From an uncultured Sandaracinaceae bacterium (GTDB taxonomy: Bacteria > Myxococcota_A > Polyangia > Polyangiales > Houyiibacteriaceae), in the NCBI GenBank assembly GCA_964495565.1, contig CAZBWQ010000010.1, forward strand, positions 3,037 through 67,036: a stretch of 64,000 nucleotides of DNA, in the 5' to 3' direction. This document shows, piece by piece, positions 507 through 14,751 of the stretch. The stretch's first letter is position 1; the number at the start of each line of letters is the position of its first letter. Both the position numbers and the translations under genes were made by a program. The notes beneath the pieces were generated by a model, which was not told where the DNA came from, made no database searches, and was given only the letters and a program-made list of their open reading frames with translations.

Positions 507-1739
507 TCATTCGGTGAGGCCTCCGGCGCCACCCATGTGGTAGCCCTCCTCGCCGTGCAAGCTCGTGTCTAGGCCATCGCGTTCTTGGTCCTGGGTCACG
601 CGAAGGCCGATGGTCACATCGAGGATCTTGAGAATGGCGAAGGTGACGACCACCGAGTACGCGGCCGCCGCGATGACCCCGAGAACGTTCTCGACGAACA
701 GCTCGCTGTTCCCTCCGATCAAGCCATCGGCGCCGCCCCACGCCGCGCTCGCCAACACGCCGGTCAACACCGCACCGAGCGCACCCCCGACGCCGTGAAT
801 TCCGAAAGCATCGAGCGCGTCGTCGTAACCAAGCTTTCCTTTGAGCATCACGGCCCCGTAGCAGACCGGCCCGGCAACCAGCCCCATGAGGACGGCCGCG
901 ACCGGGCCCACGAACCCCGCCGCCGGAGTGATGCACACGAGCCCTGCGACCAAGCCCGAAGCCACGCCGAGCGCAGTCGGCTTTCGCTGCTTGACCCACT
1001 CGGCGACCGCCCAGGAAAACGCGGCGGCGCCCGCGGCGAGATGCGTGTTGACCAGAGCGAGCGCGGCGTTGGCGTTGGAAGCAAGCGCGCTTCCCGCATT
1101 GAAGCCGAACCAGCCGAACCAAAGCATGCCCGCACCGAGCAAGGTCAAGGTGAGGTTGTGCGGAGGGCCTCGACGACGCCTGGAGCCGATCACCATCGCA
1201 CACACGAGCGCGGCGGTGCCGGACGAGAGATGCACGACCGTGCCGCCCGCGAAGTCGAGGGCCCCGCGAGCCCCCAGCCAGCCGTCCGGGCCCCAGACCC
1301 AATGGCAAATCGGGTCATAGACCAACGTTGCCCAAAGGACGATGAACAAGAGATAAGCCGAAAACTTCATTCGCTCCGCGATGGCTCCCGAGATGAGCGC
1401 AGGCGTGATGATCGCGAACATCATCTGGAACGCCATGAAGAGCAGGTGCGGGATCGTGGAGCCCTCCTGCGGCTCGAGACCGACGCCTCGCAAAAACACG
1501 TACTCGAAGCCGCCGATCAAACCGCCACCGGCATCGGCACCGAATGACAAGGAGTACCCGATCACCACCCACTGCAACGTGATGATGCCGAGCGCGATGA
1601 AGCTGTGCATGAACGAAGACAAGACGTTTCGCTGATTGACCATGCCACCGTAGAAAAACGCGAGCCCCGGCGTCATCAGCATCACCAACGCACACGAAAC
1701 CATGAGCCACGCCGTGTCGGCTTGATTGATCGCATCCAT
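507..1739 (-). CDS. amtB: ammonium transporter (Amt/MEP family)
   Basis: 410-aa polytopic ORF. ADTAWLMVSCALVMLMTPGLAFFYGGMV, DFAGGTVVHLSSG and FGIHGVGGALGAVLTG are canonical Amt motifs. Confidence 0.95.
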   Translation of the reverse strand: MDAINQADTAWLMVSCALVMLMTPGLAFFYGGMVNQRNVLSSFMHSFIALGIITLQWVVIGYSLSFGADAGGGLIGGFEYVFLRGVGLEPQEGSTIPHLLFMAFQMMFAIITPALISGAIAERMKFSAYLLFIVLWATLVYDPICHWVWGPDGWLGARGALDFAGGTVVHLSSGTAALVCAMVIGSRRRRGPPHNLTLTLLGAGMLWFGWFGFNAGSALASNANAALALVNTHLAAGAAAFSWAVAEWVKQRKPTALGVASGLVAGLVCITPAAGFVGPVAAVLMGLVAGPVCYGAVMLKGKLGYDDALDAFGIHGVGGALGAVLTGVLASAAWGGADGLIGGNSELFVENVLGVIAAAAYSVVVTFAILKILDVTIGLRVTQDQERDGLDTSLHGEEGYHMGGAGGLTE

Positions 1740-1874
1740 CCCCGGTCCTCCTTGAAAGTCGGCCGGAGCCTAAACCCGCCGTGTTTCCGGCAAATGTGTC
1801 GAAGGTTTCGGGTTTGTTTCGCCCGGCCAGAAATGCCTGGCATGGGGTGCGGATTCGTCTACATTTCCGGCTAG

Positions 1875-2069
1875 ATGCGAATCGTTCACGACAAAGAGCG
1901 CTGCGCCGGGCACGGCCAGTGTGTGGGTGTGGCTCCGGAGCTATTCAAATTCGCCGCCGACGGGTCACTGATCGTCATCGAAGCCAACCCGCCCGAGGAG
2001 CTGCGCGAGGCCGCACAAGACGCCGTGGACATATGCCCAGTCCAGGCGCTGTCGATCGCCGAAGACTGA
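1875..2069 (+). CDS. small single-cluster ferredoxin
   Basis: 64 aa. KERCAGHGQCVGVAPELF ... DAVDICPVQAL has the Cys spacing of mini 3Fe-4S/4Fe-4S ferredoxins. Confidence 0.8.
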   Translation: MRIVHDKERCAGHGQCVGVAPELFKFAADGSLIVIEANPPEELREAAQDAVDICPVQALSIAED

Positions 2070-2211
2070 AATTCGAGGTTTTTTTGCGGTCAGACCGGGG
2101 GTGCAAGCGGAAGTGATTTCGGTTACAACTTCCCCCGGCGAGCCACACCCATTGGCGGGTGGAAACGCTCGATGACCGCGAGGTCAAGACGAAAACAGAG
2201 AGGCAATATCA

Positions 2212-2553
2212 ATGAAATCCGTAGCTGAGTTCTTCGAGAAGTTTGAGAAGCGCGCCGCTGAAAATACCGACGCGGCCACCGCCCCCAACGCAGTGTACCA
2301 GTTCAACATCACCGGTGACGGCGGCGGCGAATGGAACCTCGACCTCACGAAGGGGAAGACCGATGGCTTCGTCGGCGAAGGCAAGCACGACAACCCGGGT
2401 GCGACCATTACCGTTTCGGCCGACGACTGGTTGGGGATGCTCAACGGGTCGCTCAACCCCATGCAGGCGTTCATGTCCGGCAAGATCAAGATCGACGGCG
2501 ACATGACGCTGGCGATGAGCCTTCAGCAAGTGATGAACCTCGCCCAAGACTGA
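2212..2553 (+). CDS. SCP2 sterol/lipid-carrier domain protein
   Basis: 113 aa. YQFNITGDGGGEWNLDL...ATITVSADDWLGMLNGSLNPMQAFMSGKIKIDGDM is a typical SCP-2 fold signature. GAGAGG SD lies upstream of the ATG. Confidence 0.75.
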   Translation: MKSVAEFFEKFEKRAAENTDAATAPNAVYQFNITGDGGGEWNLDLTKGKTDGFVGEGKHDNPGATITVSADDWLGMLNGSLNPMQAFMSGKIKIDGDMTLAMSLQQVMNLAQD

Positions 2554-2578
2554 GCCTTCCAACGGTCGTGCTCGATCG

Positions 2579-2612
2579 GGGTGGCTTCTTCGACTGGAAG
2601 CCACCCTTTTTT
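2579..2612 (+). terminator. rho-independent terminator after the SCP2 gene
   Basis: Perfect 10-bp stem gggtggcttc (2579-2588) / gaagccaccc (2597-2606), 8-nt loop, then tttttt (2607-2612). Confidence 0.75.
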
Positions 2613-2619
2613 GTGAGTC

Positions 2620-3237
2620 ATGCCCTCATCCAGCGAAAGACCTAGCGATGCTTCGCGTACGAGGCTGAGCCCGGAGGACCGGCAGCAGCAGCTCCTCCGA
2701 GTCACCTCCGACATCATCGCGACGGATGGAGTCGACAACGTGCGGATCCCGTACGTCGCTTCGGCGGCAGGGATCACGCGCCCGGTGGTCTACAAGTTCT
2801 TCCCGAATCGGCACGAGCTGATCAAGGGCGTTCTCGAAGACTTCCGGGATGATTTCATGAGCCGGGCGCCCGACATCCTGCACAGCGAAGAGAACGCCGA
2901 CGTGGCCGCCATCGCGCGGGCGTTCATCGACGCGGCGTGCGATACGATCGAGGCCCGCGGGTCGGGCGGTTGGCAACTTCTCCGATCGGTCGCGCCCGAT
3001 CAGGAAATCTCCGAGATCAGCAAGGAATTCAGGCGCCAGCTCGTGCAACCGTGGTTGATCCCGCTGCGCGAGCTGACCGGGGTGGACGACGCCGAAGCGC
3101 TCGCGCTGGCGGACATGATGCTGACGGGGGCCGGCGAGATTTTGCAGCGGTGGATCGATGGCGAGTTCACACGCCAGCAGGTGGCAACTTTGCTCGGACG
3201 GATCATCATGGCGGTGTTGAACGAGTTTACGGAATGA
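2620..3237 (+). CDS. TetR/AcrR family transcriptional regulator
   Basis: 205 aa. N-terminal HTH: RQQQLLRVTSDIIATDGVDNVRIPYVASAAGITRPVVYKFFPNRHELI. Stop overlaps the menB start (ATGA at 3234-3237). Confidence 0.85.
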   Translation: MPSSSERPSDASRTRLSPEDRQQQLLRVTSDIIATDGVDNVRIPYVASAAGITRPVVYKFFPNRHELIKGVLEDFRDDFMSRAPDILHSEENADVAAIARAFIDAACDTIEARGSGGWQLLRSVAPDQEISEISKEFRRQLVQPWLIPLRELTGVDDAEALALADMMLTGAGEILQRWIDGEFTRQQVATLLGRIIMAVLNEFTE

Positions 3238-4142
3238 GCAAAGCCATGGTTTCCGAGATATTCGATGCGTCCAAATGGGTCGAGGTCGAGGGCTTCGATT
3301 TCGAGGACATCACCTATCACCGAGCCAAAGAGCAAGGCACGGTGCGGATCGCGTTCGACCGACCGGAGGTGCGCAACGCGTTCCGACCTGGCACCGTCGA
3401 CGAGCTCTACCGCGCCTTGGACCATGCGCGCCAAACGCCCGACGTCGGATGCGTGCTGTTGACTGGCAACGGCCCCTCACCCAAAGACGGCGGCTGGGCG
3501 TTCTGCTCGGGCGGCGACCAGCGGATCCGCGGCAAGGACGGATACAAGTACGAGACCGATTCGGCGGGCGAAGTCGACCCGGCGAAGCTCGGACGCCTGC
3601 ACATCCTGGAAGTCCAACGTCTGATTCGCTTCATGCCGAAGATCGTCATCGCGGTCGTACCTGGGTGGGCGGTCGGAGGCGGCCACAGCCTGCACGTCGT
3701 TTGCGACATGACCATCGCCAGCAAGGAGCACGCGCTCTTCAAACAGACCGACCCCGACGTCGCGAGCTTCGACAGTGGGTACGGATCGGCCCTTCTGGCG
3801 CGGCAGGTCGGACAAAAGAAGGCGCGCGAGGTCTTCTTCGTGGGCCTGAGCTACAGCGCGGAGGAGGCGGCCGCCATGGGAATGGTCAACGCCGTGGTGC
3901 CTCACGCCGAGCTCGAAAGCTTCGCGCTTTCCTGGGGCGAAGCCATCAACTCGAAGAGCCCGACGGCGATGCGGATGCTCAAGTTCGGGTTCAACATGGT
4001 CGACGACGGTCTGGTCGGTCAGCAGATTTTCGCCGGAGAGGCGACCCGGTTGGCTTATGGCACCGAAGAAGCACAGGAAGGCCGCGATGCGTTTCTCGAA
4101 AAGCGCCCTCAGGACTACCGGAAGTTCCCCTGGCACTATTGA
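3234..4142 (+). CDS. menB: 1,4-dihydroxy-2-naphthoyl-CoA synthase (crotonase superfamily)
   Basis: Internal ATG 3234 of the 2937-4142 ORF chosen; the upstream part is an Arg/Gly-rich GC artefact overlapping TetR. LTGNGPSPKDGGWAFCSGGDQRIRGKDGYKY and C-terminal FLEKRPQDYRKFPWHY are MenB-type signatures. Confidence 0.85.
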   Translation: MSKAMVSEIFDASKWVEVEGFDFEDITYHRAKEQGTVRIAFDRPEVRNAFRPGTVDELYRALDHARQTPDVGCVLLTGNGPSPKDGGWAFCSGGDQRIRGKDGYKYETDSAGEVDPAKLGRLHILEVQRLIRFMPKIVIAVVPGWAVGGGHSLHVVCDMTIASKEHALFKQTDPDVASFDSGYGSALLARQVGQKKAREVFFVGLSYSAEEAAAMGMVNAVVPHAELESFALSWGEAINSKSPTAMRMLKFGFNMVDDGLVGQQIFAGEATRLAYGTEEAQEGRDAFLEKRPQDYRKFPWHY

Positions 4143-4181
4143 CCCAGCGCTTCCATTTCGGCCTCGGATTGCCTATCTTCC

Positions 4182-4733
4182 TTGGATTCGAAGCAAAAAC
4201 GTGCCAGATCAGCACACTGGAGAACGGAGTCAGTCATCTCGAGCAAGATATTCGTAGGGAACCTCAATTTCGCAACGACGGACGAAGAGCTTCGCGCGCT
4301 GTTCGGAGAAATTGGGGAAGTCGTGGACGTTCACATTCCGAAGGATCGCGAGACGGGCCGCCCGAGGGGCTTCGCGTTCGTTCGATTCGCCTCGGAGGAG
4401 CACGCACGGCAAGCGGTCGAGCAGATGCACGGCCGTGAGGTCGGCGGACGTGCGCTGCGGTTGGACATTGCGGAGGACCGACCGCGTCCTGCTCGCCCGC
4501 GGCGAGATTTCAAGGCCCGGCCCGATCGGCGCGCAAACGGACCGCGTCACGCGGATGATCTGCCGGACGCCGATCTCGCGCAGCAGGATTACGGCCGTTA
4601 CGACTACGGCCGTGAAGCCCACGGGGACGACGACTTCGATCGCGACGGCGGCCGTGGGGGCAAGTCCTTCGGCAAAGCGAAGAGGCCCAAGGGCAGCCGT
4701 CGCGGCTTACGCGCAAAGAAACGAAGCCTTTGA
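4182..4733 (+). CDS. RRM-type RNA-binding protein with Arg/Asp-rich tail
   Basis: RNP2 KIFVGNL and RNP1 RGFAFVRF motifs. The only in-frame start is ATG 4182, which gives a 20-aa N-terminal extension. Confidence 0.85.
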   Translation: MDSKQKRARSAHWRTESVISSKIFVGNLNFATTDEELRALFGEIGEVVDVHIPKDRETGRPRGFAFVRFASEEHARQAVEQMHGREVGGRALRLDIAEDRPRPARPRRDFKARPDRRANGPRHADDLPDADLAQQDYGRYDYGREAHGDDDFDRDGGRGGKSFGKAKRPKGSRRGLRAKKRSL

Positions 4734-4747
4734 GGCGCACAAAAAAT

Positions 4748-4777
4748 CTCGGGCGAGGTGCGAACACCCCGCCCGAG
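4748..4777. terminator. GC hairpin, possible bidirectional terminator/insulator
   Basis: 8-bp stem ctcgggcg (4748-4755) / cgcccgag (4770-4777), 14-nt loop. An A6 run lies upstream (T-run on the minus strand) and a weak gttgtgttgt tract downstream. Confidence 0.35.
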
Positions 4778-5066
4778 CGCCCGTTGTGTTGTACCCCCAA
4801 GGAGTTCGAATCTCGATTTGCCCTGCCGGAAGGGTTGCTGATCGGCCTACCGACAGTGTTACGGTAAAGCTTCGGAGTTACGGTTGTCAACAGGTATTTT
4901 GTCGCACAATTGTCCAACGGTTCCATGAGGTTGACGGTGCGAGGCCGAGCATTTCTTTCGACGCGTAGCTTCGAGCCGCAGACGCCAGGCCGGCCGAGTG
5001 ACGCGGCCGAAGCGTCCTGCTATCAGCAAGGTACCGGGCGGGCAGAGGGCAAGACGAGAGAGATCG

Positions 5067-5276
5067 ATGAAGAACGACGCGGGGGATAGGAACGAGCTCG
5101 ATCGAGCGAGGCGCCATTTTCTCAAAGCCGCGACCTACACGGCGCCGGCGATTCTCGCGACGATCACCCTGAACAGGGCCCACGCGCAGGCTGCGTCGTG
5201 CAATCCGTCGACCTGCGCGCCTGGGGTATGCAATCCGAACGACTGCATGCCGCTGGCCTGCATGCCCTTCGCCTGA
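5067..5276 (+). CDS. candidate RiPP precursor: twin-arginine-signal peptide with (C-x-P-x-x)x5 core
   Basis: 69 aa from ATG 5067 (GAGAGAG 4-10 nt upstream; GTG 4998 is an alternative start): MKNDAGDRNELDRARRHFLKAATYTAPAILATITLNRAHAQAASCNPSTCAPGVCNPNDCMPLACMPFA. Stop TGA overlaps the rSAM ATG (TGATG at 5274-5278). Confidence 0.6.
   Translation: MKNDAGDRNELDRARRHFLKAATYTAPAILATITLNRAHAQAASCNPSTCAPGVCNPNDCMPLACMPFA
5199..5273 (+). repeat. five contiguous in-register pentapeptide repeats C-x-P-x-x (peptide core)
   Basis: CNPST-CAPGV-CNPND-CMPLA-CMPFA, with invariant Cys1 and Pro3. The repeat runs exactly to the stop codon. tgcaatccg and tgcatgcc are each repeated at DNA level. Confidence 0.9.
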
Positions 5277-6418
5277 TGAGCCTCATGGACGGACGCAAGG
5301 CCGGCTACTTCTTGCCCGACGATTGGATCCTCTGGCAGAGCGAAGGACGGCTCGAAGCCATCCAGCTGAGCAGCGGCGAGCAAATTCGAATCGAGTGCGG
5401 CACGGAGGCAGGCGCGCTGACCGACCGGCTGTCGGCTTCGGTTTGGGATTCGCTCGCCCGATTCGAGCCTCTCGTGGGACAGCTCCGCGCACGACTGCGC
5501 GAGCAGCCTCTGCAACCGCTCACGCGCCAGGCAGTACTGCGCGGCTCCGGGTGGAGGCAGCTCTTCGTCGAGCTCACCAGCAAGTGCAACGAGCAATGCG
5601 TGCACTGCTATGCCGAGTCGTCGCCGCATCGCGTCGAGGCTTTGTCGTGGCCGGAGCTCCAAGGCGTGCTCGAGGACGCCAAGGCATTGGGCTTCGGCTT
5701 GGTGCAGCTCACCGGGGGCGATCCGCTCGTCAGCCCGCATTGCCTTCCGGCGGTGGAGCTCGGCCGCACGCTCGGAATTCCGCAGATCGAAATCTACACC
5801 AACGGGCTCGCACTGCGGGGAACGACCTACGACCGGCTGCGGGCGCTTCGACCGTCGTTTGCTTTTTCCTTCTACTCCCACGACCCCCAAACCCATGACG
5901 CGATCACCCAAACCGCGGGAAGTCATGCCCGCACCACGAGAGCGATTCGACGGGCCGTACGAGACGGGTTGCAGGTCCGAGTCGGCATGATTGCCATGGA
6001 GCAAAACCGAGGCCACGCATCGCGCGCGCGTGCTTACTTGCAAAGCCTCGGGGTAGCTCCTTCCGCGATCCGAATCGATCGAATGCGGGACGTCGGTCGC
6101 GGCCATCCCATGCAATGGGACGACGCCGACGACACGGCGGGCATGCGAGCAGGCGGCGTCGAGAGCGCCAAGCCGAGGAACTTCGGCGGCACGGCTGCGG
6201 TGAGCTACGACGGAAACGTCCATCCTTGCATCTTCAGCCGTCACCTTCTGCTCGGGTCGATCCGAAAGCAAAGCCTCGAAGCCATCCTGACGTCGGTCGA
6301 AGCGGTGGTCCCAGCCAAACGAAAGCTGCTGTCGGCCGCCCAGCAGTGGGAACAGAAGCTGGCCTGCTGGGAGTGCCGGGCCCGCTCTGCTCTGCTCGAC
6401 GGAAGTTACCATGCCTGA
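5276..6418 (+). CDS. radical SAM peptide-modifying enzyme (N-terminal extension; abridged SPASM/twitch-like C-terminus)
   Basis: CX3CX2C = CNEQCVHC (5585-5608) and a QLTGGDPL SAM-binding motif. C-terminal YDGNVHPCIF...LACWEC carries only 3 Cys. Start ATG 5276 chosen because the longer ORF from 5198 overlaps the peptide gene. Confidence 0.85.
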   Translation: MSLMDGRKAGYFLPDDWILWQSEGRLEAIQLSSGEQIRIECGTEAGALTDRLSASVWDSLARFEPLVGQLRARLREQPLQPLTRQAVLRGSGWRQLFVELTSKCNEQCVHCYAESSPHRVEALSWPELQGVLEDAKALGFGLVQLTGGDPLVSPHCLPAVELGRTLGIPQIEIYTNGLALRGTTYDRLRALRPSFAFSFYSHDPQTHDAITQTAGSHARTTRAIRRAVRDGLQVRVGMIAMEQNRGHASRARAYLQSLGVAPSAIRIDRMRDVGRGHPMQWDDADDTAGMRAGGVESAKPRNFGGTAAVSYDGNVHPCIFSRHLLLGSIRKQSLEAILTSVEAVVPAKRKLLSAAQQWEQKLACWECRARSALLDGSYHA

Positions 6419-6710
6419 CGCTTCGGAGCGGCGTGTGCCACGGCGCAAGAATACGCTCACGCACGAAGTCACCGAGACGGACGAAGTCGTGGTCTACGAC
6501 GGCAACCCCGAAAGCCCGCAACTGCTGGTGCTCAACGACACGGCCGCAGGCATTTGGCTCATGATCGACGGAAGCCGATCGGTGGCCGAGATCACGGCCG
6601 AAATTATGCGCCACGTCGACGCCGAACGCGAAACGGTGCTTCGGGACGTCATGGATTTCCTCGATGACCTCGAGCAACGGAAGCTGATCACGTGGAAAGA
6701 GGCCATCTAG
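6411..6710 (+). CDS. PqqD-family peptide chaperone (RRE-type)
   Basis: 99 aa. VVVYDGNPESPQLLVLNDTAAGIWLMIDGSRSVAEITAEIMRHV...VMDFLDDLEQRKLITW is a canonical PqqD pattern. 8-nt overlap with the rSAM gene. Confidence 0.8.
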   Translation: MPDASERRVPRRKNTLTHEVTETDEVVVYDGNPESPQLLVLNDTAAGIWLMIDGSRSVAEITAEIMRHVDAERETVLRDVMDFLDDLEQRKLITWKEAI

Positions 6711-7513
6711 AGAAGCACGAGATCTTTCTTTCCGGGCTTCACGTGAGCATCCGAAGCTCTTGCTCGAGAACCAACCGGTACATCCGGCGACATTGGTCGG
6801 CGGCTGCGTCCCCGATCATCCCTCCCGACTCCAAATGCGACATCGAAGTCATCGCTGACGAGTCACCTCGGATCTCGCTGGATGGAGAGATCGTGTGGGC
6901 GGACGACGACGCCGAGAGCTTGGTTGCTGGTTTCGAGGAACGGCTCTACCGACTTGCATTGGCACGGCACAAGCGCCGGCTTTCCGTGTTTCATGCCGCG
7001 GCGGTCGTCTCGGATGAGGCCACGGTGGTCTTTTCGGGACCCTCCGGCGCCGGCAAGAGCTCACTCGCGCTCGCCGCCGTCCGACGGGGTTGGAGGTACT
7101 TCTCCGACGAGTTCGTGGTGACGGACGGTCTGCGTGTGTGGGGTTGGCCGCGAGCCATCCGGTTCGACGCGCCGGAGGCTGGCGTTCGAACGCCGGACTA
7201 CCTCGAAGGGCTCGACCGCGACGAGGATGCCCTCGTCTCGGAGCCGAATCGAGCGCCACCCTACTATCTCGTCCCGGACCACGCCCTGCAGCGAACGACG
7301 TGCCCGGCGCGTGACGTGCGTTTCATCCGGATCGAGCCCGGTGAGACGACGGAGCTGACCCGCGTTTCGACGAGCGTCGGCCTGGCTCACTGGACCGAAG
7401 CCTCTTTCTTCGAGCCCCCGATGTCCTTGGGCGCGCTCGTGGGGCTCGATCGGACCTGGCACGCATCGTGGCACCACCCCGACGCGCTGATCGACTTGTT
7501 GGAGATCTCATGA
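6692..7513 (+). CDS. HPr-kinase-related (HprK-like) P-loop kinase
   Basis: SVFHAAAVVSDEATVVFSGPSGAGKSSLALAAVRRGWRYFSDEFVV resembles the HprK/P C-terminal kinase core (Walker A GPSGAGKS). Start uncertain: GTG 6692 or in-frame GTG 6743. Confidence 0.7.
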   Translation: MERGHLEKHEIFLSGLHVSIRSSCSRTNRYIRRHWSAAASPIIPPDSKCDIEVIADESPRISLDGEIVWADDDAESLVAGFEERLYRLALARHKRRLSVFHAAAVVSDEATVVFSGPSGAGKSSLALAAVRRGWRYFSDEFVVTDGLRVWGWPRAIRFDAPEAGVRTPDYLEGLDRDEDALVSEPNRAPPYYLVPDHALQRTTCPARDVRFIRIEPGETTELTRVSTSVGLAHWTEASFFEPPMSLGALVGLDRTWHASWHHPDALIDLLEIS

Positions 7514-8286
7514 AGCGCAAGCTCGACATCCGCTATCGCCTGCTGCGGGGTTGGGCTCTGCAGAGTCGCAACACCCAGCACCTCTTGAGGCGTCTCGAGC
7601 GCGCCATGGAAGATTGGACGGGCGCCGTGTTGCGCGCGACGCTCGCCGATCGCGAAAAAGAGATGCTGACCGTCGACCTGTACGACGTGTCCTTTCGTGC
7701 GGAGAACGATCATGACGGACTCTACGAGTGGGAACGGCGGTGGTTCGAACGGCGACTGCCTCGACCCCCGGCGTCGATTCTGGTCGGCGCGGCAGGCGCT
7801 GGTCGGGAAGCAGCCGCGCTTCAGAAGATGGGCTACCAGGTTCATGCATTCGAGCCGTCCGCCTCGGCGTTTCGACTGTGTCGGGAGACCCTCGGCCCCG
7901 ACCACGCCGATCGCGCGAGCTACCGTGATCTGATTGCGACGGTGCTCCTCGGCCAGCCCACGCCCTTGCAGATCGGGCCCGATTCGCGGTTCGATGCCGT
8001 CCTTTTGGGCTGGGGCAGCTTCGGACACGTCCTTCGCCCAGCCGACCGATTCGATTTGTTGCGCGCTTGCGATCGGATCGCGCCCGCCGGCCCCATCCTG
8101 CTGAGCATCTTCCATCCCCAGACCGCAGGTGCCCGTGGCGAGCTTGCGTATACCTCCTGGGGTGGTTTCTTGGCCGCGCCCCCCGTCGAGGAGCTCGAGG
8201 AGCACGCGCGAGCTCTCAATCGAGAGGTCGTCGTGTCACTCGGGACGCCGAGCTGGCACGCCACGTTGATCCCCAGCGCGAAGTAA
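7510..8286 (+). CDS. class I SAM-dependent methyltransferase
   Basis: ATGA overlap with the kinase gene (7510-7513). Motif I-like SILVGAAGAGREAAALQKMGYQVHAFEPS and post-I/II-like FDAVLLGWGSFGHV. Confidence 0.65.
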   Translation: MKRKLDIRYRLLRGWALQSRNTQHLLRRLERAMEDWTGAVLRATLADREKEMLTVDLYDVSFRAENDHDGLYEWERRWFERRLPRPPASILVGAAGAGREAAALQKMGYQVHAFEPSASAFRLCRETLGPDHADRASYRDLIATVLLGQPTPLQIGPDSRFDAVLLGWGSFGHVLRPADRFDLLRACDRIAPAGPILLSIFHPQTAGARGELAYTSWGGFLAAPPVEELEEHARALNREVVVSLGTPSWHATLIPSAK

Positions 8287-9148
8287 CCCCGCGGATGCCA
8301 CGGTGTCCGGCCTCGGCCGCATGCGTCACGAGGGAACGAAGCCCCGCCGGGAGGGACCGGTCGAGCAGATGCGGAGTCCACCAGCGAGGCGATCCGTCGT
8401 GCGTGTCCGCTCCGACGCGCGCCAACACGATCGTCAAGTGGTCGACCCACGAGAGCCGCAACGCGTCGAGCACCGCGCTGGCGACCGGCTCCTCGCGCAC
8501 CGAGTGGTGCCCCAACACGTACCCGGCGGCGCGTCGAAGCCCCGATTGCCGCAGGCGCGCCGCCACCGCGTGTGCATCTCGAACCGAGAGACAAGCTCGT
8601 TGCTGAAGCCATCGAAGGTCCTCGAGGCTCGTATCCCGACGAAACGTGCCGCGTCCCTTCACGAAGTGGCCGACCAGATGCGCGAAGAGATCTTCGTCCG
8701 ACATTCGAGCCACGGGCGCCGCGAAAAGGCCGTCGTCGCGCGACGCTCTCGAAAACACGCTTTCCGTGGACAGTCCGAAGAGACCGTGCGGAAACAGAAA
8801 GGCGTGGACGTCGATGGCGAGCGGCCAAGCGTCGCTCGCGAACGTCGCTCCGGCGCTCGAGCGAACGGTCGGCTCGAATCCGAGCGAGCGCAAGACGGAC
8901 GTCACCGTTTCGAGATCCGAAGGGCGCACGAGGAAGTCGACATCGACGAGATCCCGGCGGCCCCGTAGCGCCGGCCATCGCGCGAGCAAGAGCACTCCCT
9001 TCAACGGCATCAACACGACGCCGCGTGCAGCGCAGGCCTCGATGACGCGATTCGCAAGCGTCAGGGCCAGCTCGTCGACGAGCGCAACTCGAATGTGCTC
9101 TGGCGCACGATCGCTCATGGTCGAAAATATCGATCGCCACGCATGCAT
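8216..9148 (-). CDS. nucleotidyltransferase family protein (NTP_transf_5 / PF14907-like)
   Basis: VVLMPLKGVLLLARWPALRGRRDLVDVDFLVRPSDLETVTSVLRSLGFEP matches the 'uncharacterised nucleotidyltransferase' pattern. Alternative start ATG at 9118. The 3' end overlaps the methyltransferase 3' end by 71 nt. Confidence 0.65.
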   Translation of the reverse strand: MHAWRSIFSTMSDRAPEHIRVALVDELALTLANRVIEACAARGVVLMPLKGVLLLARWPALRGRRDLVDVDFLVRPSDLETVTSVLRSLGFEPTVRSSAGATFASDAWPLAIDVHAFLFPHGLFGLSTESVFSRASRDDGLFAAPVARMSDEDLFAHLVGHFVKGRGTFRRDTSLEDLRWLQQRACLSVRDAHAVAARLRQSGLRRAAGYVLGHHSVREEPVASAVLDALRLSWVDHLTIVLARVGADTHDGSPRWWTPHLLDRSLPAGLRSLVTHAAEAGHRGIRGVTSRWGSTWRASSASRVTRRPLD

Positions 9149-9226
9149 GGGTCAAGCCACGACCGCCCGGGAGTCGCGTGTGCCTGCGCGGTATAAACCC
9201 GAAGTGATCAATGCTATAGAGCGCCG

Positions 9227-9907
9227 ATGGCGACGCATCAGAGACTGGGCGATCTGGCCGAAACGCTGCAAGCACAGGGCGCCGATGAGCTGCGAGTTCA
9301 CGTGGTCCGACGCGCGAGGGAATTCAAGCGGTCCTGGGTGATGATGGCCGAAGCACTGGTCGAGGTTCGCAATCGTGAAGCGTACCTCGACTGGGGATAC
9401 GACGACTTCTATTCGTATTGCTCGCTGGAGCTTCAGATCAAGCGTGCCACGGCCGACAAGCTCACCGGCTCCTACGTGGCGCTGAAACACCATGCCCCCG
9501 CGGTTTTGAAACGCGATGGTCTCAACGAGCGAATCCCGGCCTGTGACGCGGTCGAGTACTTCGCCAAGGCATTGCAGGGCGTGCCCGACAACGACACCGA
9601 GGCTCGCGAGGTGGACCAGGAGGTGGTCGACGAGCTCCGGCATGCGGTGTTCGAAGAGGGAGCGCCCGTGACGGAGCTGCGCAAGCGCTTCAACCCGGTC
9701 TTTCATCCGAAACCCGAGGGCGCCGAACAGATGGACGCGATCCGCCGGACCACCGCGACCACGCGGCGGCTCGAACGGATGATCGAAGAGATCGACGGCC
9801 TGCGCCGTCCGACGGTCCGCGCCGCCCTCGACAGCCTCGAAGCGCTGCGGGAGGAGCTCGTCGAGCTGTTGGAGCGGGCGAAGTCGGCATATCCCCGGAC
9901 CGGGTGA
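9227..9907 (+). CDS. hypothetical protein (helical, acidic C-terminus)
   Basis: 226-aa ORF with good GC3 bias, divergent from the nucleotidyltransferase gene. No motif I can assign with confidence. Confidence 0.5.
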   Translation: MATHQRLGDLAETLQAQGADELRVHVVRRAREFKRSWVMMAEALVEVRNREAYLDWGYDDFYSYCSLELQIKRATADKLTGSYVALKHHAPAVLKRDGLNERIPACDAVEYFAKALQGVPDNDTEAREVDQEVVDELRHAVFEEGAPVTELRKRFNPVFHPKPEGAEQMDAIRRTTATTRRLERMIEEIDGLRRPTVRAALDSLEALREELVELLERAKSAYPRTG

Positions 9908-9970
9908 GCCCCGCGCCTTCCAATGGGGTTGCGGCTGGATGAAACACGTTCTATTTCTCCGGCTGCTGCC

Positions 9971-10420
9971 ATGAGCGACAAGACACCCATGCCCGCCGTC
10001 GAAGGGCTTTTCACGATGGACACGACGCAGCCGAGGCTCGTCGGCACACGATGCAAGGCGTGCGGCACCTATTTCTTCCCTGCCGAAAGGAGCTTTTGTC
10101 GCAATCCCGCATGTGACGAGGGCGAGCTGGTGGAGGTCACGTTGAGCCGCGTCGGTCGCGTCTGGTCTTACACCAGCGCGAGCTACAAACCCCCTCCCCC
10201 ATTCGTGGGCAAAGAGCCGTTCGAGCCCTTTGCAATCGCGGCGGTGGAGCTCGAAAAGGAAGGGATGACGATCCTCGGTCAGGTCGCCGATGGCATCGGC
10301 ACCGATCGGATTCACGCGGGGATGCGCATGGAGCTCGTGCTTCGCCCGCTCTACGAAGACGACGAGCACGTCTACCTCACGTGGAGCTGGAAACCGATCG
10401 CAGAGGCAGGTGCATCGTGA
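9971..10420 (+). CDS. Zn-ribbon/OB-fold protein (DUF35 family), thiolase partner
   Basis: CKACGTYFFPAERSFCRNPAC zinc ribbon followed by an OB-fold segment. GTGA overlap with the downstream thiolase (10417-10420). ATG 9971 preferred over 9923. Confidence 0.8.
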   Translation: MSDKTPMPAVEGLFTMDTTQPRLVGTRCKACGTYFFPAERSFCRNPACDEGELVEVTLSRVGRVWSYTSASYKPPPPFVGKEPFEPFAIAAVELEKEGMTILGQVADGIGTDRIHAGMRMELVLRPLYEDDEHVYLTWSWKPIAEAGAS

Positions 10421-11604
10421 GCCGAGATGTCGCCGTGTTGGGAGTCGGGATGCATCCCTGGGGGAAGTGGGGCCAGAGCTTCATCGGCTACGGGGTCGCC
10501 GCCGCCCGCGCGGCGTTGAAGGACGCCGGCCTCGCGTGGAAGGACGTCCAGCTCGTCGCCGGGGGCGACACGATTCGCAACGGCTACCCGGGATTCGTAG
10601 CGGGCGCCACCTTTGCCCAGGCGCTCGGCTGGTCCGGCGCCAAGGTGTCGAGCTCGTATGGGGCTTGCGCCACGGGCGCACAGGCGATCGGCGTGGCGCG
10701 GGCTCACATCTTGGCGGGGCTTTGCGACGTGGCGTTGGTCGTAGGCGCGGATGCGGCGCCGAAGGGCTTTTTCGCGCCGACCGGCGGCCGACGCCCCGAC
10801 GACCCCGACTGGCTTCGCTTCCACGTTCAAGGGATCACGAATCCGACCTATTTCGGCTTGTATGCTCGGCGTCGAATGGAGGAGCACGGAGCGACCCAGG
10901 CAGATTTCGCGGCGGTCAAGGTCAAGAACTCCCGGCACGGGCTGACGAACCCCAACGCCAGGTACCGCAAAGAGGTGTCGATCGACGAAGTGCTCGGCTC
11001 TGCCCTGGTGGCCGACCCACTTCACCTTCTCGACATCTGTGCGACGAGCGACGGCGCTGCGGCGCTCGTGTTGGCAAGCATGGAATTCGCGAAGAAGCGC
11101 AGCTCCAACCCGGTTCGAATCGCGGCCGTGTCGACGGTGACGCCCGTCTATCCGAACACCATCATCGAGATGCCCAATCTGTCGACCGATTCCAAGGCGG
11201 GCGTCGGGCTTCCCGAGCGCGGCTTCAAGGACTCGATCGCATACGCCGCCTACGAAGAAGCCGGTCTCGGGCCCGAGGACATGCACCTCGCCGAGGTGTA
11301 CGACCTCTCGACAGCGCTCGAGCTGGACTGGTACGAGCAGATCGGGCTGTGCCCACCTGGCGATGCCGAGAAGCTTCTTCGCGATGGCGACACGACCCTG
11401 GGAGGCCGCATTCCAGTCAACCCGAGCGGTGGGCTGAGCTGCTTCGGAGAAGCGGTTCCGGCCCAAGCCATCGCACAAGTCTGCGAGCTGACCTGGCAAC
11501 TACGAGGCCAGGCGGGTGCGCGGCAGGTCGACGGCGCGAGGGCCGGGGTCACCGTCAACCAGGGGCTTTTCGGGCACGGCTCGTCCGTGATCTGCAGAAT
11601 TTGA
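10417..11604 (+). CDS. thiolase-fold lipid-transfer (SCP-x type) protein
   Basis: VSRDVAVLGVGMHPWGKW..., SSSYGACATGAQAIG (nucleophile Cys region) and NPSGGLSCFGEAVPAQ. Classic pairing with a DUF35 protein. Confidence 0.85.
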   Translation: MSRDVAVLGVGMHPWGKWGQSFIGYGVAAARAALKDAGLAWKDVQLVAGGDTIRNGYPGFVAGATFAQALGWSGAKVSSSYGACATGAQAIGVARAHILAGLCDVALVVGADAAPKGFFAPTGGRRPDDPDWLRFHVQGITNPTYFGLYARRRMEEHGATQADFAAVKVKNSRHGLTNPNARYRKEVSIDEVLGSALVADPLHLLDICATSDGAAALVLASMEFAKKRSSNPVRIAAVSTVTPVYPNTIIEMPNLSTDSKAGVGLPERGFKDSIAYAAYEEAGLGPEDMHLAEVYDLSTALELDWYEQIGLCPPGDAEKLLRDGDTTLGGRIPVNPSGGLSCFGEAVPAQAIAQVCELTWQLRGQAGARQVDGARAGVTVNQGLFGHGSSVICRI

Positions 11605-11695
11605 GGGGACCGAGTCGGCTGCCGGCTCGAGAGTGGCCCCGGTGCGACAATTTGCCGCCTGTGCACGGGCCCGGAGCGTGATTACGTAAGAAAGC

Positions 11696-12145
11696 ATGGT
11701 GCGTCTCGTGGCAATGGCAGCTTTGCTCGCATGGGGTTGCTCGGCAGCTCCGGCCGAAGGTGAGCCGGACGAGAGCCGTCAGGTTCAGACGATCGTGCGC
11801 AGCACCGCAAGCCCCTTTTGCCCGGGCAAGACCCTCGATTCCTGTCCGAGCCCGAAAGCTGCAGAGTGGCGCCAAGACATCAACGAGTGGGTGGCGGAAG
11901 GGGTCCCAGGCACGGAGATCCGAGATCGGCTCCAGGCCAGGGTGCCAGGCTTCGATTTGAGCATCCCGCCCGTGAAGTGGGGTTGGGTGATTCCCCTCGT
12001 CGCAGTCGCTCTGTCGACCTTGTGGTTCGTCGTCATGGCGCGACGCTACCGAAAGGCGAACGGGTCCGATCGACGACCCGTCGGACCCGTCCGCGACGAC
12101 CCGTTGGATGCACGGCTCGACGAGGAGCTGGCTCGCCTCGACTAG
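11696..12145 (+). CDS. CcmH/NrfF-like lipoprotein (cytochrome c maturation family, divergent)
   Basis: Lipobox LLAWGCS. FCPGKTLDSCPSPKAAEWRQDINEWVAEGVPGTEIRDRL followed by one TM helix mirrors CcmH architecture, but with C-x6-C instead of CxxC. Confidence 0.45.
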   Translation: MVRLVAMAALLAWGCSAAPAEGEPDESRQVQTIVRSTASPFCPGKTLDSCPSPKAAEWRQDINEWVAEGVPGTEIRDRLQARVPGFDLSIPPVKWGWVIPLVAVALSTLWFVVMARRYRKANGSDRRPVGPVRDDPLDARLDEELARLD

Positions 12146-12161
12146 CCTCGCCGTCGCCGCG

Positions 12162-13436
12162 TCACAGAAGCATCGCCGCGACCGCCGCGGTCATGAGCGA
12201 CGCGAGCATCCCTCCGAACATGGCGCGCAGCCCGAGCTTTGCGAGGTCGTGACGGCGCTCGGGTGCGATCCCTCCAATTCCGCCCAGCTGGATTCCGATC
12301 GAGCCGAAGTTGGCGAATCCGCAGAGGGCATAGCTCACGATGATCGCGGTCCGTGGCGATAGCGTGCTGCTTCCGTCGGCGAGGGCTTCGTGCAGATGGA
12401 GGTAGGCAATGAACTCCGTCAGGACGATCTTTTCACCGAGCAAGGCGCCTACCTGAGCGCATTCGGCGGCGGGAACTCCAATCAGAAAGGCAAAAGGCCA
12501 GAAGATGCCGCCCAAGATCCGTTGGATCGTCCACGGCTCGACGGCTGCATTTCCCTCGAGACCGGCCCACTGATTGTAGAGATCGAACGGCAGAGCGAGC
12601 AGCCCATTGGCCAACGCGATCAAGGCAATGAAGGCCAGCAGCATCGCGCCCACGTTGAGCGCGAGCTTCATGCCCTCGGTGGCGCCCCTGGCCGCCGCAT
12701 CGATCACGTTGGCGTCTCGACGCGGCGTGGTGACGACGCCTTGCTCGGCGCCCTGCGGAGGCTCGGTCTCCGGGCACATCACCTTGGCGATGACCAGGGC
12801 CGCCGGAGCGCTCATGACGCTCGCCGCGATGAGATGCCCCGCGATGTTTGGAACGATCCGCTCGAGCAGCCCGACGTATGCTGCGAGCACACCCCCGGCG
12901 ACGGTCGCAAATCCCCCCGTCATGACGGCCATGAGCTGCGACCTAGTCATTTTTCCGATGAACGGAGCGACCATCAGCGGCGCCTCGGTCTGACCCACGA
13001 AGGTATTGGCGGCAACGCACAACGTCTCGGGACCCGACGTCTGCATGGTACGACGCATGAGCCATGCGAAGCCGCTCACCAGCCGTTGCATGATGCCGAC
13101 GTAGTAAAACACGGTCATCAATGCCGAGAAGAAGATCAGGGTCGGCAGGACGTTGAGGGCGATCGTGAAGCGCTCGGAAGCAAAGTCGCCGAAGACGAAT
13201 TCGGTTCCTCGGGCCGTGAATCCGAGCAGGGCCAAAACTGCGTCGTTGAGGACGGCAAACACGGCGCGCCCCACGTCGGTCTTCATCACCACCAGGCCGA
13301 ACGAAAGCTGAAGCACGAGCCCCCACGCCACCACTCTCCATGGCATGCGGCTCCGATGCTCCGACAGCACCCAAGCCAGGCCCACCATCGCGAAGAGCCC
13401 AAGCAGAGGAACGATGCGCGGACCCAGCTCCTCCAT
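12162..13436 (-). CDS. concentrative nucleoside transporter (NupC/CNT family)
   Basis: Polytopic protein. MEELGPRIVPLLGLFAMVGLAWVLS..., GTEFVFG, NTFVGQTEAPL and GFANFGSIGIQ are CNT signatures. ATG 13436 preferred over 13511. Confidence 0.9.
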   Translation of the reverse strand: MEELGPRIVPLLGLFAMVGLAWVLSEHRSRMPWRVVAWGLVLQLSFGLVVMKTDVGRAVFAVLNDAVLALLGFTARGTEFVFGDFASERFTIALNVLPTLIFFSALMTVFYYVGIMQRLVSGFAWLMRRTMQTSGPETLCVAANTFVGQTEAPLMVAPFIGKMTRSQLMAVMTGGFATVAGGVLAAYVGLLERIVPNIAGHLIAASVMSAPAALVIAKVMCPETEPPQGAEQGVVTTPRRDANVIDAAARGATEGMKLALNVGAMLLAFIALIALANGLLALPFDLYNQWAGLEGNAAVEPWTIQRILGGIFWPFAFLIGVPAAECAQVGALLGEKIVLTEFIAYLHLHEALADGSSTLSPRTAIIVSYALCGFANFGSIGIQLGGIGGIAPERRHDLAKLGLRAMFGGMLASLMTAAVAAMLL

Positions 13437-13482
13437 CAGCGATTCCTTCCCCGCATCTCGTTTCCGGATTCGAGCGGGTCGC

Positions 13483-14751
13483 TCACTCGTACGGCACCTG
13501 AAAGCGTGCACGGTAAGGAGCGATGCGCGCCTCGACGTCGTCTTTCGTCATCCCGAAGTCGGCGAGCGAATAGCGGTGACGGCCGTACTTGTGTTGCTTG
13601 TCCACCTTGCGAGCCGCTTCCATTTCGCTCCGCGCGGCGTCGGTGAGATCGAGGTTGGCCGCCTCGTAGATGCGTGCAATCTCGGGGAGAGGATCCCGAA
13701 CCAGGTCGTAGTACGACACGTCGACGAAGCCGCGATTTTCGACTCGGTCGCGGGTCGCCATCGTGCGACGCGCCATGTTCTCGATTTTGCCCAACCAGTG
13801 ACTCGCGACCCGATGCGGATCGACGTCGTCGCTGAAAATCATCTGCAGATGGGTGAGCATGCTGAATAGCGAGGGGCTGGTCTTGAGAGGGTCGCGATGG
13901 GTGTGGACGATCGTCGCGTCGGGGAAGACCTCGAGCAGTGGATCGAAGTATTCTTGGTGATGGGGCGTCTTCAGGACCCAGCGGGTGGGCTTGCCGATGC
14001 CGGGCCGCTGCCACTGGAGATATTGCATCATCCGTTTTAGAGCCTCGTAGGCCGGCACGTGATCCTGATGCTCGAGCCAACGCGAATAGGTCGGCACGTT
14101 CATCATCGCTTCCGGAGTCGTCGTCAAGAATGCTTGCTCGAGGAGGATCACCTCTTCTTCGGGCGCCTCGGGCTCGGCCGGATGAATGGCGAAAAAGCCG
14201 GGTGACATGTACCGGAGCCCACGGGCGGCCGCCGCGGCTTGGGCGAATCGCGGATCCTTGCGCTGCCAAGGTCGCCGCGGAGGCGGCGCCGGGTTGATCG
14301 CCTCCCAGGAGGCGAGGGATCGAATCGCCGGGTCCCGGGCAATCAACCGGTGCAGCATGGTGGTTCCCGTACGCGCAAGGCCCGCTACGACCACCGGACC
14401 TTCGACGGGAATGTCGAGGATCTCCGGGTGCCGCCGAATCGTGTCGTGGGCGACCAGCTTGTTGGCCAAGACACCCACGATCCGCCCCCGAATGATCATG
14501 CGGCCCACCGTGTTGAGCGCAGCTTCACGATTGATCGAATCGATCAAAATCTCGAGCGGCTCGACGAATGCCTCGTCGCCGAAGTCGCTCAGCTCCGTCT
14601 TGCGTCGGGCGTCGTCCAACACACCGGACACGCTGATCGGTCCGCCGCCGATGCCCAGGCGCGAAAGCAGTCGTCCCACTCGGTTGGCGAACGCGATGGG
14701 CGCCGGACGATGAGGTCGATCGAACGCGCTCGTTACCACGTCGGACGCCAT
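13483..14751 (-). CDS. sulfotransferase family protein
   Basis: 5'-PSB-like loop VVVAGLARTGTTMLHRLI and downstream WVLKTPHHQEYF, typical of the Sulfotransfer_3-like family. Confidence 0.75.
   Translation of the reverse strand: MASDVVTSAFDRPHRPAPIAFANRVGRLLSRLGIGGGPISVSGVLDDARRKTELSDFGDEAFVEPLEILIDSINREAALNTVGRMIIRGRIVGVLANKLVAHDTIRRHPEILDIPVEGPVVVAGLARTGTTMLHRLIARDPAIRSLASWEAINPAPPPRRPWQRKDPRFAQAAAAARGLRYMSPGFFAIHPAEPEAPEEEVILLEQAFLTTTPEAMMNVPTYSRWLEHQDHVPAYEALKRMMQYLQWQRPGIGKPTRWVLKTPHHQEYFDPLLEVFPDATIVHTHRDPLKTSPSLFSMLTHLQMIFSDDVDPHRVASHWLGKIENMARRTMATRDRVENRGFVDVSYYDLVRDPLPEIARIYEAANLDLTDAARSEMEAARKVDKQHKYGRHRYSLADFGMTKDDVEARIAPYRARFQVPYE

Follow-up and report, generated by a model that had tools for sequence, protein, structure and literature searches.

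Serine phosphorylation guided by a leader-binding domain has been described for two groups of peptides that are ribosomally synthesized and then modified post-translationally (RiPPs), the linear polyphosphorylated peptides (LPPs) and the paeninodins, both of which were stated to be restricted to Bacillota (PMC13381572). The LPPs (Popov et al., Nat Commun, May 2026; PMC13381572) are encoded by LppA/K/B/S/D/N clusters whose core genes specify a SipW-like signal peptidase (LppS), a discrete RiPP recognition element (RRE; LppB), an HprK-like kinase (LppK), a PF14907 protein (LppN), and an MsbA-like exporter (LppD), without a lasso cyclase. LppK modifies Ser3 of the core with as many as four phosphates, the leader carries the motif YxxPxVLxHQxIxFET/AQS (with the slash at the junction to the core), cleavage is inefficient without phosphorylation, and radical S-adenosylmethionine (SAM) enzymes and methyltransferases go unmentioned in that paper (PMC13381572). 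In lasso systems of the paeninodin and pseudomycoidin type (PMC9266682, PMC6993621), the kinases PadeK, ThcoK, and PsmK act on a linear precursor with its C-terminal Ser as the acceptor; lasso-peptide kinases require a His-Lys-Asp-Asp tetrad, and the pseudomycoidin enzyme PsmN adds hexoses to the phospho-Ser (PMC9266682). Here we describe a related six-gene unit in 64,000 nucleotides of DNA from an uncultured Sandaracinaceae bacterium of the Myxococcota (assembly GCA_964495565.1, contig CAZBWQ010000010.1, positions 3,037 to 67,036 of the forward strand). This whole stretch is called the window below, and all coordinates without a locus name refer to it.

The unit is a RiPP-type operon with one convergent member. 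The precursor gene (5067–5276, plus strand, ATG at 5067) encodes a peptide of 69 amino acids, MKNDAGDRNELDRARRHFLKAATYTAPAILATITLNRAHAQAASCNPSTCAPGVCNPNDCMPLACMPFA, of a family that lies beside the enzyme genes in all related loci. It is followed on the same strand by genes for a radical SAM/SPASM enzyme of 380 residues (5276–6418; start placed from the sequence and from the gene call in the related locus L002), a PqqD-family RRE of 99 residues (6411–6710), a P-loop kinase of the HprK/phosphoenolpyruvate carboxykinase (PEPCK) fold of 273 residues (6692–7513), and a class I SAM-dependent methyltransferase of 258 residues (7510–8286), and it is completed on the minus strand by a PF14907 (NTP_transf_5) nucleotidyltransferase gene of 310 codons (8216–9148). 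The stop codon of the precursor and the start of the radical SAM gene share TGATG (5274–5278), the ATG of the PqqD gene (6411) lies inside the 3′ end of the radical SAM gene, the GTG start of the kinase (6692) precedes the PqqD stop (6710), and the methyltransferase start overlaps the kinase stop as ATGA (7510–7513); such overlaps, running from the precursor through the methyltransferase, are the usual sign of translational coupling and suggest it here. A GTG at 7468 was considered as the methyltransferase start and set aside in favor of the ATG at 7510, which is likelier given the ATGA overlap. The nucleotidyltransferase gene converges on the methyltransferase gene, and their 3′ ends overlap by 71 nucleotides (8216–8286), a portion that encodes a nonconserved C-terminal tail varying in length and sequence among homologs; in some loci, extra DNA lies between the two genes. 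The PqqD, kinase, methyltransferase, and PF14907 open reading frames (ORFs) are thus contiguous, as the initial annotation of this DNA had described them, although it had left the opposite strand of the last gene and the 71-nucleotide overlap unmentioned.

That these genes belong together is supported by their recurrence. The precursor, radical SAM, PqqD, and kinase genes occur jointly in five unrelated genomic contexts, that is, in the window lineage and in four further loci (L011–L014) with kinase homologs of 30–46% identity and wholly different flanks. Four of these contexts include the methyltransferase (the window lineage, L011, L012, and L013), and four include the PF14907 gene (the window lineage, L011, L012, and L014). 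Loci of close homologs in metagenome-assembled genomes (MAGs) have flanking genes in common with the window and were therefore counted with it as one lineage. A precursor alignment spanning seven lineages was too divergent to seed a metagenome scan, and a five-sequence version found only close relatives of the window lineage; this leader-seeded scan recovered 35 further loci of that lineage, with the full gene set after the precursor wherever the contig was long enough. The five enzyme genes (radical SAM, PqqD, kinase, methyltransferase, and nucleotidyltransferase) are all under purifying selection, with median pairwise ratios of nonsynonymous to synonymous substitution (dN/dS) of 0.16–0.23. 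The initial annotation had allowed that the homologs might always accompany a different, unrelated substrate gene; we found them with the same precursor family. It had also set the module outside the lasso pathway, with which the searches agree: tblastn with proteins from two Bacillota loci (L009 and L010, described below) gave no match to a lasso cyclase in the whole 64-kb window and only noise (E of 0.4 or worse) for the B2 protease and the SpI peptidase, Pfam and NCBIfam models found no lasso cyclase or B2 protease domain in any cassette protein, and neither enzyme occurs in any of the cassettes. We are confident, if short of certain, that the PqqD, kinase, methyltransferase, and nucleotidyltransferase genes form a genuine tailoring set for the window precursor.

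The precursors, of which 34 distinct sequences were recovered, combine a conserved leader with a hypervariable core, which at the level of sequence is the classic RiPP pattern. The leader runs from an acidic N-terminus through A-R-R-[HYTR]-[FL]-L-[KR] and Y-x-A-P-A-[IV] to a hydrophobic stretch and A-[HS]-A-Q. In the seven-lineage alignment, A14, R15, R16, and L19 of the first element, Y24, A26, P27, and A28 of the second, and A38, A40, and Q41 of the last are invariant, and the Y-x-A-P-A-I/V motif is found in 34/34 precursors. The window leader reads ARRHFLK, then AATYTAPAILATITL, then NRAHA/Q, and matches by consensus a signal of the twin-arginine translocation (Tat) pathway, with its twin-arginine motif, moderately hydrophobic region, and AxA site. 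Its RRHFLK motif (residues 15–20, 5109–5126), compared with S/T-R-R-x-F-L-K, makes the ARRHFLK element a near-perfect twin-arginine consensus and the leader a predicted Tat signal. Inside the hydrophobic region of this signal, Y-T-A-P-A-I (residues 24–29, 5136–5153) is a putative RRE-binding motif that matches the [Y/W]xxPx[L/V/I] motif bound by the discrete recognition elements of lasso and LPP systems, the definition and role of which are taken from the LPP work (PMC13381572). A-H-A-Q (residues 38–41, 5178–5189) is a predicted signal peptidase I site, with cleavage expected between the AxA and the Gln. The initial annotation had treated the leader only as a part to be removed; by the consensus reading it would be an export signal that also carries the Y-x-x-P-x-I motif.

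Between A-x-A-Q and a Ser-Cys pair that is invariant in 34/34 precursors lie zero to two residues. In the window this Ser is Ser44 (5196–5198), directly before the first Cys, and we propose it as the phospho-acceptor by analogy with Ser3 of the LppK substrate core. It is the only invariant hydroxyl of the core, at position +4 after the predicted cleavage in the window and at +3 in most homologs, with a spacing from the leader Tyr of 20 residues in the window and 19 in most homologs. The remaining core consists of C-x-P-x(1-4) repeats of variable number and sequence, in the window the five C-x-P-x-x pentads CNPST, CAPGV, CNPND, CMPLA, and CMPFA (5199–5273), and contains no Lys. The initial annotation had correctly read Ser44, Ser48, and Thr49 as the sole hydroxyls of the mature peptide, as they are after the AHA-Q site, and Ala as the C-terminus, and it had listed the three as candidate acceptors; all three are present, but they are not equivalent, as Ser48 and Thr49 vary among the 34 precursors. 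Its further point that the C-terminal-Ser rule of the lasso kinases does not apply is borne out across the family: none of the 34 precursors ends in Ser, so an internal hydroxyl is the likely acceptor. For the Cys-derived nucleophile that it had also entertained, nothing was found in support. The C-x-P core resembles the C-x-P-x-R motif of sulfatase maturation and the C-x3-D/T motifs of ranthipeptides. Radical SAM/SPASM sulfatase maturases oxidize C-x-P-x-R to formylglycine, and ranthipeptides are cross-linked at C-x3-D/T.

Like the LPP clusters, the window cassette has no lasso cyclase and combines a PF14907 transferase with an HprK-like kinase and a discrete RRE of the PqqD type; its leader has a Tyr-x-x-Pro-x-aliphatic handle and a predicted signal-peptidase-type junction, and the Ser stands at core position +3 in LPPs and at +3 or +4 here, with a Tyr-to-Ser spacing of 18 in LPPs against 19–20. 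There are also differences. The HQxIxFET part of the LPP leader is replaced here by the Tat hydrophobic region and AHAQ, a short series of Cys-x-Pro repeats makes up the core where LPPs have a 45-residue linear peptide, the enzyme set is enlarged by a radical SAM/SPASM enzyme and a methyltransferase, the host is of Myxococcota type and not of the Bacillota, and the kinases share the catalytic core only. The cassette also comes with neither a dedicated SpI-like peptidase nor an exporter of the MsbA type; the sole ATP-binding cassette (ABC) match in the window by tblastn lies about 29 kb away (at about 38.0–38.7 kb), and the five cassette contexts contain neither type of protein. Both would be unnecessary if a Tat signal and an AxA site were served by housekeeping machinery. 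In the two Bacillota loci used for comparison, L009 (Paenibacillus violae, 2918–14359) and L010 (Bacillus rhizoplanae, 1639–14469), an LPP-like cluster stands directly beside a paeninodin-like lasso cluster. These LPP-like clusters contain genes for a kinase, an RRE, an SpI peptidase, an ABC exporter, and a PF14907 protein in an arrangement that matches the one reported (PMC13381572), and the L010 precursor reads ...YTRPMVLSTQPIRFETAQSWNK... The paeninodin-type lasso systems have the same three tailoring protein types as the window, and the His-Lys-Asp-acidic residues and the [Y/W]xxP leader motif are common to both; they differ in their cyclase and B2 protease, in their C-terminal acceptor Ser, and in their kinases, which are about 310 residues long and pass the Hpr_kinase_C cutoff, whereas the 273-residue window kinase does not.

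It follows that the new substrate context suggested in the initial annotation for the kinase and the PF14907 protein is no longer new as such: an RRE, an HprK-like kinase, and a PF14907 protein acting outside the lasso pathway on an internal Ser were published in 2026 (PMC13381572). What appears to be undescribed in the literature searched is the link of the module with a radical SAM/SPASM enzyme and a dedicated methyltransferase, the use of a Tat signal as a RiPP leader, the Cys-x-Pro repeat core, the occurrence in Myxococcota, and how large the kinase family is. Nothing relevant was found in the literature on the SynChlorMet system, on HprK-like proteins together with RiPPs and radical SAM enzymes, or on twin-arginine signals together with RiPPs and SPASM enzymes.

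Onto the observed gene content, conservation, motifs, and folds of the cassette, a scheme can be placed in which every catalytic step, the choice of Ser44 as acceptor, export through Tat, and the position of cleavage are taken by analogy from the LPP and paeninodin-type systems. In this scheme, the PqqD protein would act in the cytoplasm as a discrete RRE that binds Y24-x-x-P27-x-I29 within the hydrophobic region of the Tat leader, and in the precursor bound in this way the beginning of the core would be offered to the HprK-like kinase, which with ATP would phosphorylate, and possibly polyphosphorylate, the invariant Ser44. The PF14907 enzyme would add a nucleotide- or sugar-derived group to the Ser44 phosphate, the methyltransferase would methylate the peptide or the appended group, and the radical SAM/SPASM enzyme would separately modify the C-x-P repeats. 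The finished peptide would then be exported by the Tat system and released by signal peptidase I, starting at Gln41. Taken as a whole, with Ser44 as the acceptor, we judge this scheme about evenly poised between being right and being wrong.

Several points weigh against it. The scheme is built by comparison, and its Tat and signal-peptidase assignments are consensus readings. The kinase scores below the cutoff of every curated kinase model and is only remotely related to the LppK-like and lasso kinases. Discrete PqqD proteins classically serve radical SAM/SPASM partners, and the adaptor may work for the radical SAM enzyme alone; the conservation of Ser-Cys could likewise serve radical SAM chemistry, signal-peptidase recognition, or Tat recognition. 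L014 lacks the methyltransferase, and in L013 no nucleotidyltransferase was seen, which makes the two accessory; in the LPP model system, deletion of the PF14907 gene lppN had no visible effect (PMC13381572).

The PqqD protein matches PF05402 with 61.3 bits (gathering score 23.4) and aligns to LppB (chain 9x8z_B) and TbiB1, its residues N42, D79, and F83 corresponding to N33, D70, and F74 of LppB, and the counterparts of these three are conserved in all cassette PqqD proteins. In the crystal structure of LppB, Asn33, Asp70, and Phe74 grip the YxxP motif by holding the kink at the Pro in place, forming a hydrogen bond with the Tyr, and partitioning the cleft in which the motif binds (PMC13381572). 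With these contact residues retained, the window PqqD is predicted, by sequence and by analogy, to fit the YxxP motif of the leader. Against NCBIfam models, it reaches 19.8 bits for TIGR04353 (cutoff 35) and 29.2 bits for ScmD (cutoff 100). The neighboring radical SAM enzyme matches the Pfam models Radical_SAM (54.4 bits) and SPASM (31.1 bits) and stays below every curated NCBIfam cutoff, the best match being ScmF with 66.5 bits against 400.

The adaptor and the kinase also travel without the radical SAM gene. In L052, the PqqD, kinase, and methyltransferase genes are arranged as in the window, and the 440 nucleotides available upstream contain no radical SAM gene. In L040, compared with its closest relative L027 (L040:1–600 against L027:7958–9336), a clean deletion of about 1.1 kb corresponds exactly to the radical SAM/SPASM gene, whereas the precursor, PqqD, kinase, methyltransferase, and nucleotidyltransferase genes are intact; this may be a natural variant or an assembly artifact. 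A sister clade of kinases (about 30% identity, with an “LSDE” motif) in L053, L054/L055, and L056 likewise lacks a radical SAM gene, and its kinase-PqqD pair is always directly preceded by a gene for a protein of 130–180 residues (L053:7500–7987, L054:3585–3983, L055:3525–3983, and L056:3457–3990). This substrate-like protein has a twin-arginine signal with AAW[AV][VI]PEI, then PAGA/[QS][PG]LS, a Gly/Pro/Ser-rich body, an LAFTG sortase signal, and a membrane anchor, which suggests that the same adaptor-kinase logic acts in the sister clade on surface proteins anchored to the cell wall. Because the succession of a Tat signal, [Y/W]xxP, and a Ser after AxA recurs there with a different class of substrate, the adaptor and the kinase would appear to work jointly on a leader-proximal Ser, independently of the radical SAM enzyme.

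It is against this background that we weigh the reading in which the PqqD protein serves the radical SAM/SPASM enzyme only, as PqqD serves PqqE, with the kinase acting free of any adaptor on another hydroxyl (for example, position 5 of C-x-P-x-T) or on a non-peptide, and with Ser44 conserved for some other cause. The PqqD gene is indeed translationally coupled to the radical SAM gene, the nearest curated models (PqqD, GeoRSP, and ScmD chaperones) are all partners of radical SAM enzymes, and in many homologs the fifth residue of the pentads is frequently Thr (for example, CMPAT and CMPVT). The hydroxyls at that position are, however, not conserved, and the window has one such pentad; PqqD-kinase pairs without a radical SAM gene exist in L052, L053–L056, and L040; and the leader carries a YxxP motif of lasso/LPP type, the matching contact residues of which are kept in the PqqD protein. 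We therefore regard this reading as unlikely, while taking it seriously.

The assignment of the kinase, for its part, is weak by curated models but stands up to independent comparison. The protein scores 18.6 bits against Hpr_kinase_C (Pfam gathering score 33.3), thus missing the model of HprK/P proper, with which it shares the fold superfamily, and 45.4 bits against TIGR04352 (NCBIfam cutoff 200). A profile of 21 family sequences aligns to HprK/P (1jb1; E of 3.6e-6) over the stretch that contains the conserved His, the Walker A motif or P-loop, and the Asp-acidic pair, and the AlphaFold model (mean predicted local distance difference test (pLDDT) 94) matches ATP-dependent PEP carboxykinases (E of about 2e-6) and then HprK/P. 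PEP carboxykinases and HprK/P share one fold. Among 126 family representatives drawn from clusters at 50% identity, His101 (6992–6994), Lys122 within Walker A (G116–S123, 7037–7060), and Asp139 show no variation, the residue at position 140 is acidic throughout (Glu in 80, Asp in 46; Glu in the window, D139–E140 at 7106–7111), and Arg154 is kept in 125. The alternation of Glu and Asp at the fourth tetrad position reads as a conservative variant of the lasso-kinase motif, and with its modeled HprK/PEPCK-like fold and conserved tetrad the protein looks catalytically competent. A score below the Pfam threshold is normal in this kinase superfamily, since the LppK-like kinase of L009 has no Hpr_kinase_C match at all and the adjoining lasso kinase barely passes.

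Assignment of the window kinase specifically to the LppK type, on the grounds of a length of about 273 residues in both and a shared “SDE”, was considered and rejected: in sequence and profile comparisons (hhalign probabilities of 90.5% and 96.9%) it is about equally remote from the LppK-like and the lasso kinases, and Asp and Glu interchange freely within the family. Because only about 45–56 residues around the active site align, we file the kinase in neither subfamily and do not call the cassette an LPP cluster. The family itself is large: at 50% identity and an E of 1e-30 or better it comprises 125 clusters, none of them named, and there are about 100 close homologs of the window kinase in MAGs labeled Polyangiales, Myxococcales, or Deltaproteobacteria. 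A genome-contig scan with the kinase alignment and a generic P-loop pattern gave only remote relatives among the matches listed, L009 and L010 among them.

Members of the kinase family carry the precomputed Pfam label PF27840 “ScmC”, a weak or faint match on relatives, and this connects them to SynChlorMet (ScmC/ScmD/ScmE/ScmF) and HPr-rel-A (TIGR04352/TIGR04353), two systems that are defined bioinformatically and uncharacterized. Both pair a PqqD-family protein with a kinase or ScmC-like protein, as here, SynChlorMet also has radical SAM/SPASM partners, and models of the two systems are the best, if weak, curated matches for three window proteins. The window scores nevertheless fall far below the cutoffs (45 against 200, 66 against 400, 29 against 100, and 20 against 35), and SynChlorMet has two radical SAM/SPASM genes where the window has one. 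To our knowledge, no precursor with a Tat leader has been described for either family. The label invites a reading in which the HprK-like protein is not a Ser kinase but, an accessory that uses ATP in the radical SAM step (for example, a scaffold, or an activator of a carboxylate or thiol), in the manner of ScmC, the uncharacterized partner protein of SynChlorMet; the nucleotidyltransferase and methyltransferase would act on the product, much as in the idea of a Cys-derived nucleophile in the initial annotation. The association with radical SAM/SPASM enzymes does recur, also in L050 (322–9173), where a PqqD gene and a gene for an ScmC-like kinase with His-Lys-Asp-Asp accompany a radical SAM/SPASM gene, two methyltransferase genes (one PrmA-like, the other homologous to that of the window but fused to a Peptidase_S24 domain of the LexA/signal-peptidase clan), and a 67-residue ORF that has YQTPRIV as its leader motif and ends in Ser. 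Yet the His-Lys-Asp-acidic tetrad, essential in the characterized peptide Ser kinases, is fully conserved, the only relatives studied by experiment are Ser kinases, and family members without any radical SAM gene occur, all of which makes an accessory role of this kind quite improbable.

The two remaining enzymes point to what might become of a phosphate on Ser44. The nucleotidyltransferase is assigned with confidence to PF14907 (72.5 bits against a gathering score of 31.2) and has the Pol-beta-type motifs (Gly, DxD, and a third carboxylate), with K50-G51 (8996–9001), D69-x-D71 (8936–8944), and D113-x-H115 (8804–8812) invariant; its family profile has no match in the PDB. The methyltransferase reaches 20.7 bits for Methyltransf_11, just under the Pfam cutoff of 21.2, but its motif I, GAAGAGRE (G93–E100, 7786–7809), is invariant among homologs, its family profile matches class I SAM methyltransferases only in the PDB (best MtfA, 9e-5), and its model (pLDDT 92.5) has more than 1000 significant Foldseek matches to methyltransferases, headed by cg3271, CgnL, CypM, and TylM1; by sequence and model, the gene at 7510–8286 encodes a class I SAM-dependent methyltransferase. 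Among the top structural neighbors are CgnL and CypM, which are N-methyltransferases of RiPPs, and N,N-dimethyltransferases of amino sugars, and CypM, CgnL, TylM1, and MtfA together lean toward N-methylation, although such a ranking does not identify the substrate. The initial annotation had offered capping of the new N-terminus as one role; we reject it as unlikely, since the α-amine would form only after Tat export, away from SAM. As the core also has no Lys, an N-methyltransferase would need an amine on the appended group; methylation of S, of O, or of a phosphate is equally open.

A third alternative concerns the fate of that phosphate, which, with or without nucleotidylation, might be a transient leaving group on Ser44, yielding dehydroalanine that would react with the neighboring Cys. 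Phosphorylation followed by elimination is established chemistry in the lanthipeptide synthetases of classes II–IV. That precedent, the Cys-rich core, and the position of Ser44 always directly before a Cys all speak for the idea, but the cassette has no lyase or cyclase domain by Pfam and NCBIfam models, the phosphate persists and is extended in the LPP and paeninodin systems, and the nucleotidyltransferase and methyltransferase argue for elaboration of a phosphate, not for its removal; we think this highly improbable. Fortuitous adjacency or decay, suggested by the subthreshold scores of the kinase and methyltransferase and by the opposite strand of a nucleotidyltransferase gene that overlaps the methyltransferase 3′ end, is effectively refuted by co-occurrence in five independent contexts, dN/dS near 0.2, intact catalytic motifs, and confidently modeled folds.

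If RRE-guided phosphorylation of Ser44 is correct, RRE-guided Ser (poly)phosphorylation, so far known only from lasso peptides and the LPPs of Bacillota, would extend to Gram-negative Myxococcota and to a class of Cys-rich peptides modified by radical SAM enzymes. A twin-arginine export signal would then be the recognition handle for tailoring enzymes, which would tie RiPP maturation directly to the general secretion machinery and remove the need for a dedicated protease and exporter, and a second, unrelated substrate family would become available for working out the role of the PF14907 transferases. More tentatively, and with the balance of our judgment against it, Tat signals may double as RiPP leaders across a broad family, in which a PqqD/HprK-like pair reads [Y/W]xxPx[I/V/L] inside the signal and, before export, modifies the Ser at +3 or +4 after AxA with a phosphate-based group that PF14907 enzymes and methyltransferases extend, with substrates ranging from the Cys-x-Pro peptides of Myxococcota to the Gly/Pro-rich, LAxTG sortase-anchored surface proteins of L053–L056. 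In this wider reading, the adaptor could in addition be a chaperone akin to those of Tat proofreading, holding the signal until modification is complete. The nearest parallel for a secretion signal as leader is provided by the bufferins, Cys-containing RiPPs modified by MNIO enzymes, which are also Cys-rich peptides with a leader that is cleaved by signal peptidase (PMC11626156). Bufferins are modified in the cytoplasm before export, and their signal peptide is dispensable for modification (PMC11626156). They differ in having a Sec signal where a Tat signal is predicted here, in the use of MNIO/DUF2063 instead of radical SAM, PqqD, and kinase proteins, and in that the signal here carries a predicted adaptor-binding motif.

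The surroundings of the cassette set its probable limits. Upstream, a 13-bp GC-rich hairpin with a minus-strand T-run (4748–4777) lies between the gene for an RRM protein (4182–4733) and the precursor and is probably the upstream boundary of the operon; a promoter and terminator scan of the locus gave signals at or below shuffle expectation. Downstream, a 226-residue ORF (9227–9907, plus strand) diverges from the nucleotidyltransferase gene and has no Pfam or NCBIfam match; it is found in the window lineage only (77–85% identity, dN/dS of about 0.11), is absent from the four independent cassette contexts, and is probably not part of the cassette. A Sulfotransfer_3-family gene (13483–14751, minus strand), about 4.3 kb downstream, was considered as a member and rejected, being syntenic in the window lineage only and absent from the same four contexts. 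Sulfotransferases have been noted near proteobacterial lasso kinase clusters; nothing links the window gene to the cassette.

In three unrelated loci, genes for Wzc-like polysaccharide co-polymerases/tyrosine kinases flank the module in L051 (10688–12943) and L052 (2735–4666) and interrupt it in L011 (2130–4346); LPP and paeninodin clusters embedded in capsule loci have likewise been reported (PMC13381572). In L013 (853–6493), the cassette stands directly downstream of genes for TonB, an imelysin-like Peptidase_M75 protein, an HTTM protein, and a TonB-dependent receptor, neighbors that hint at a metal-related role of the Cys-rich peptide.

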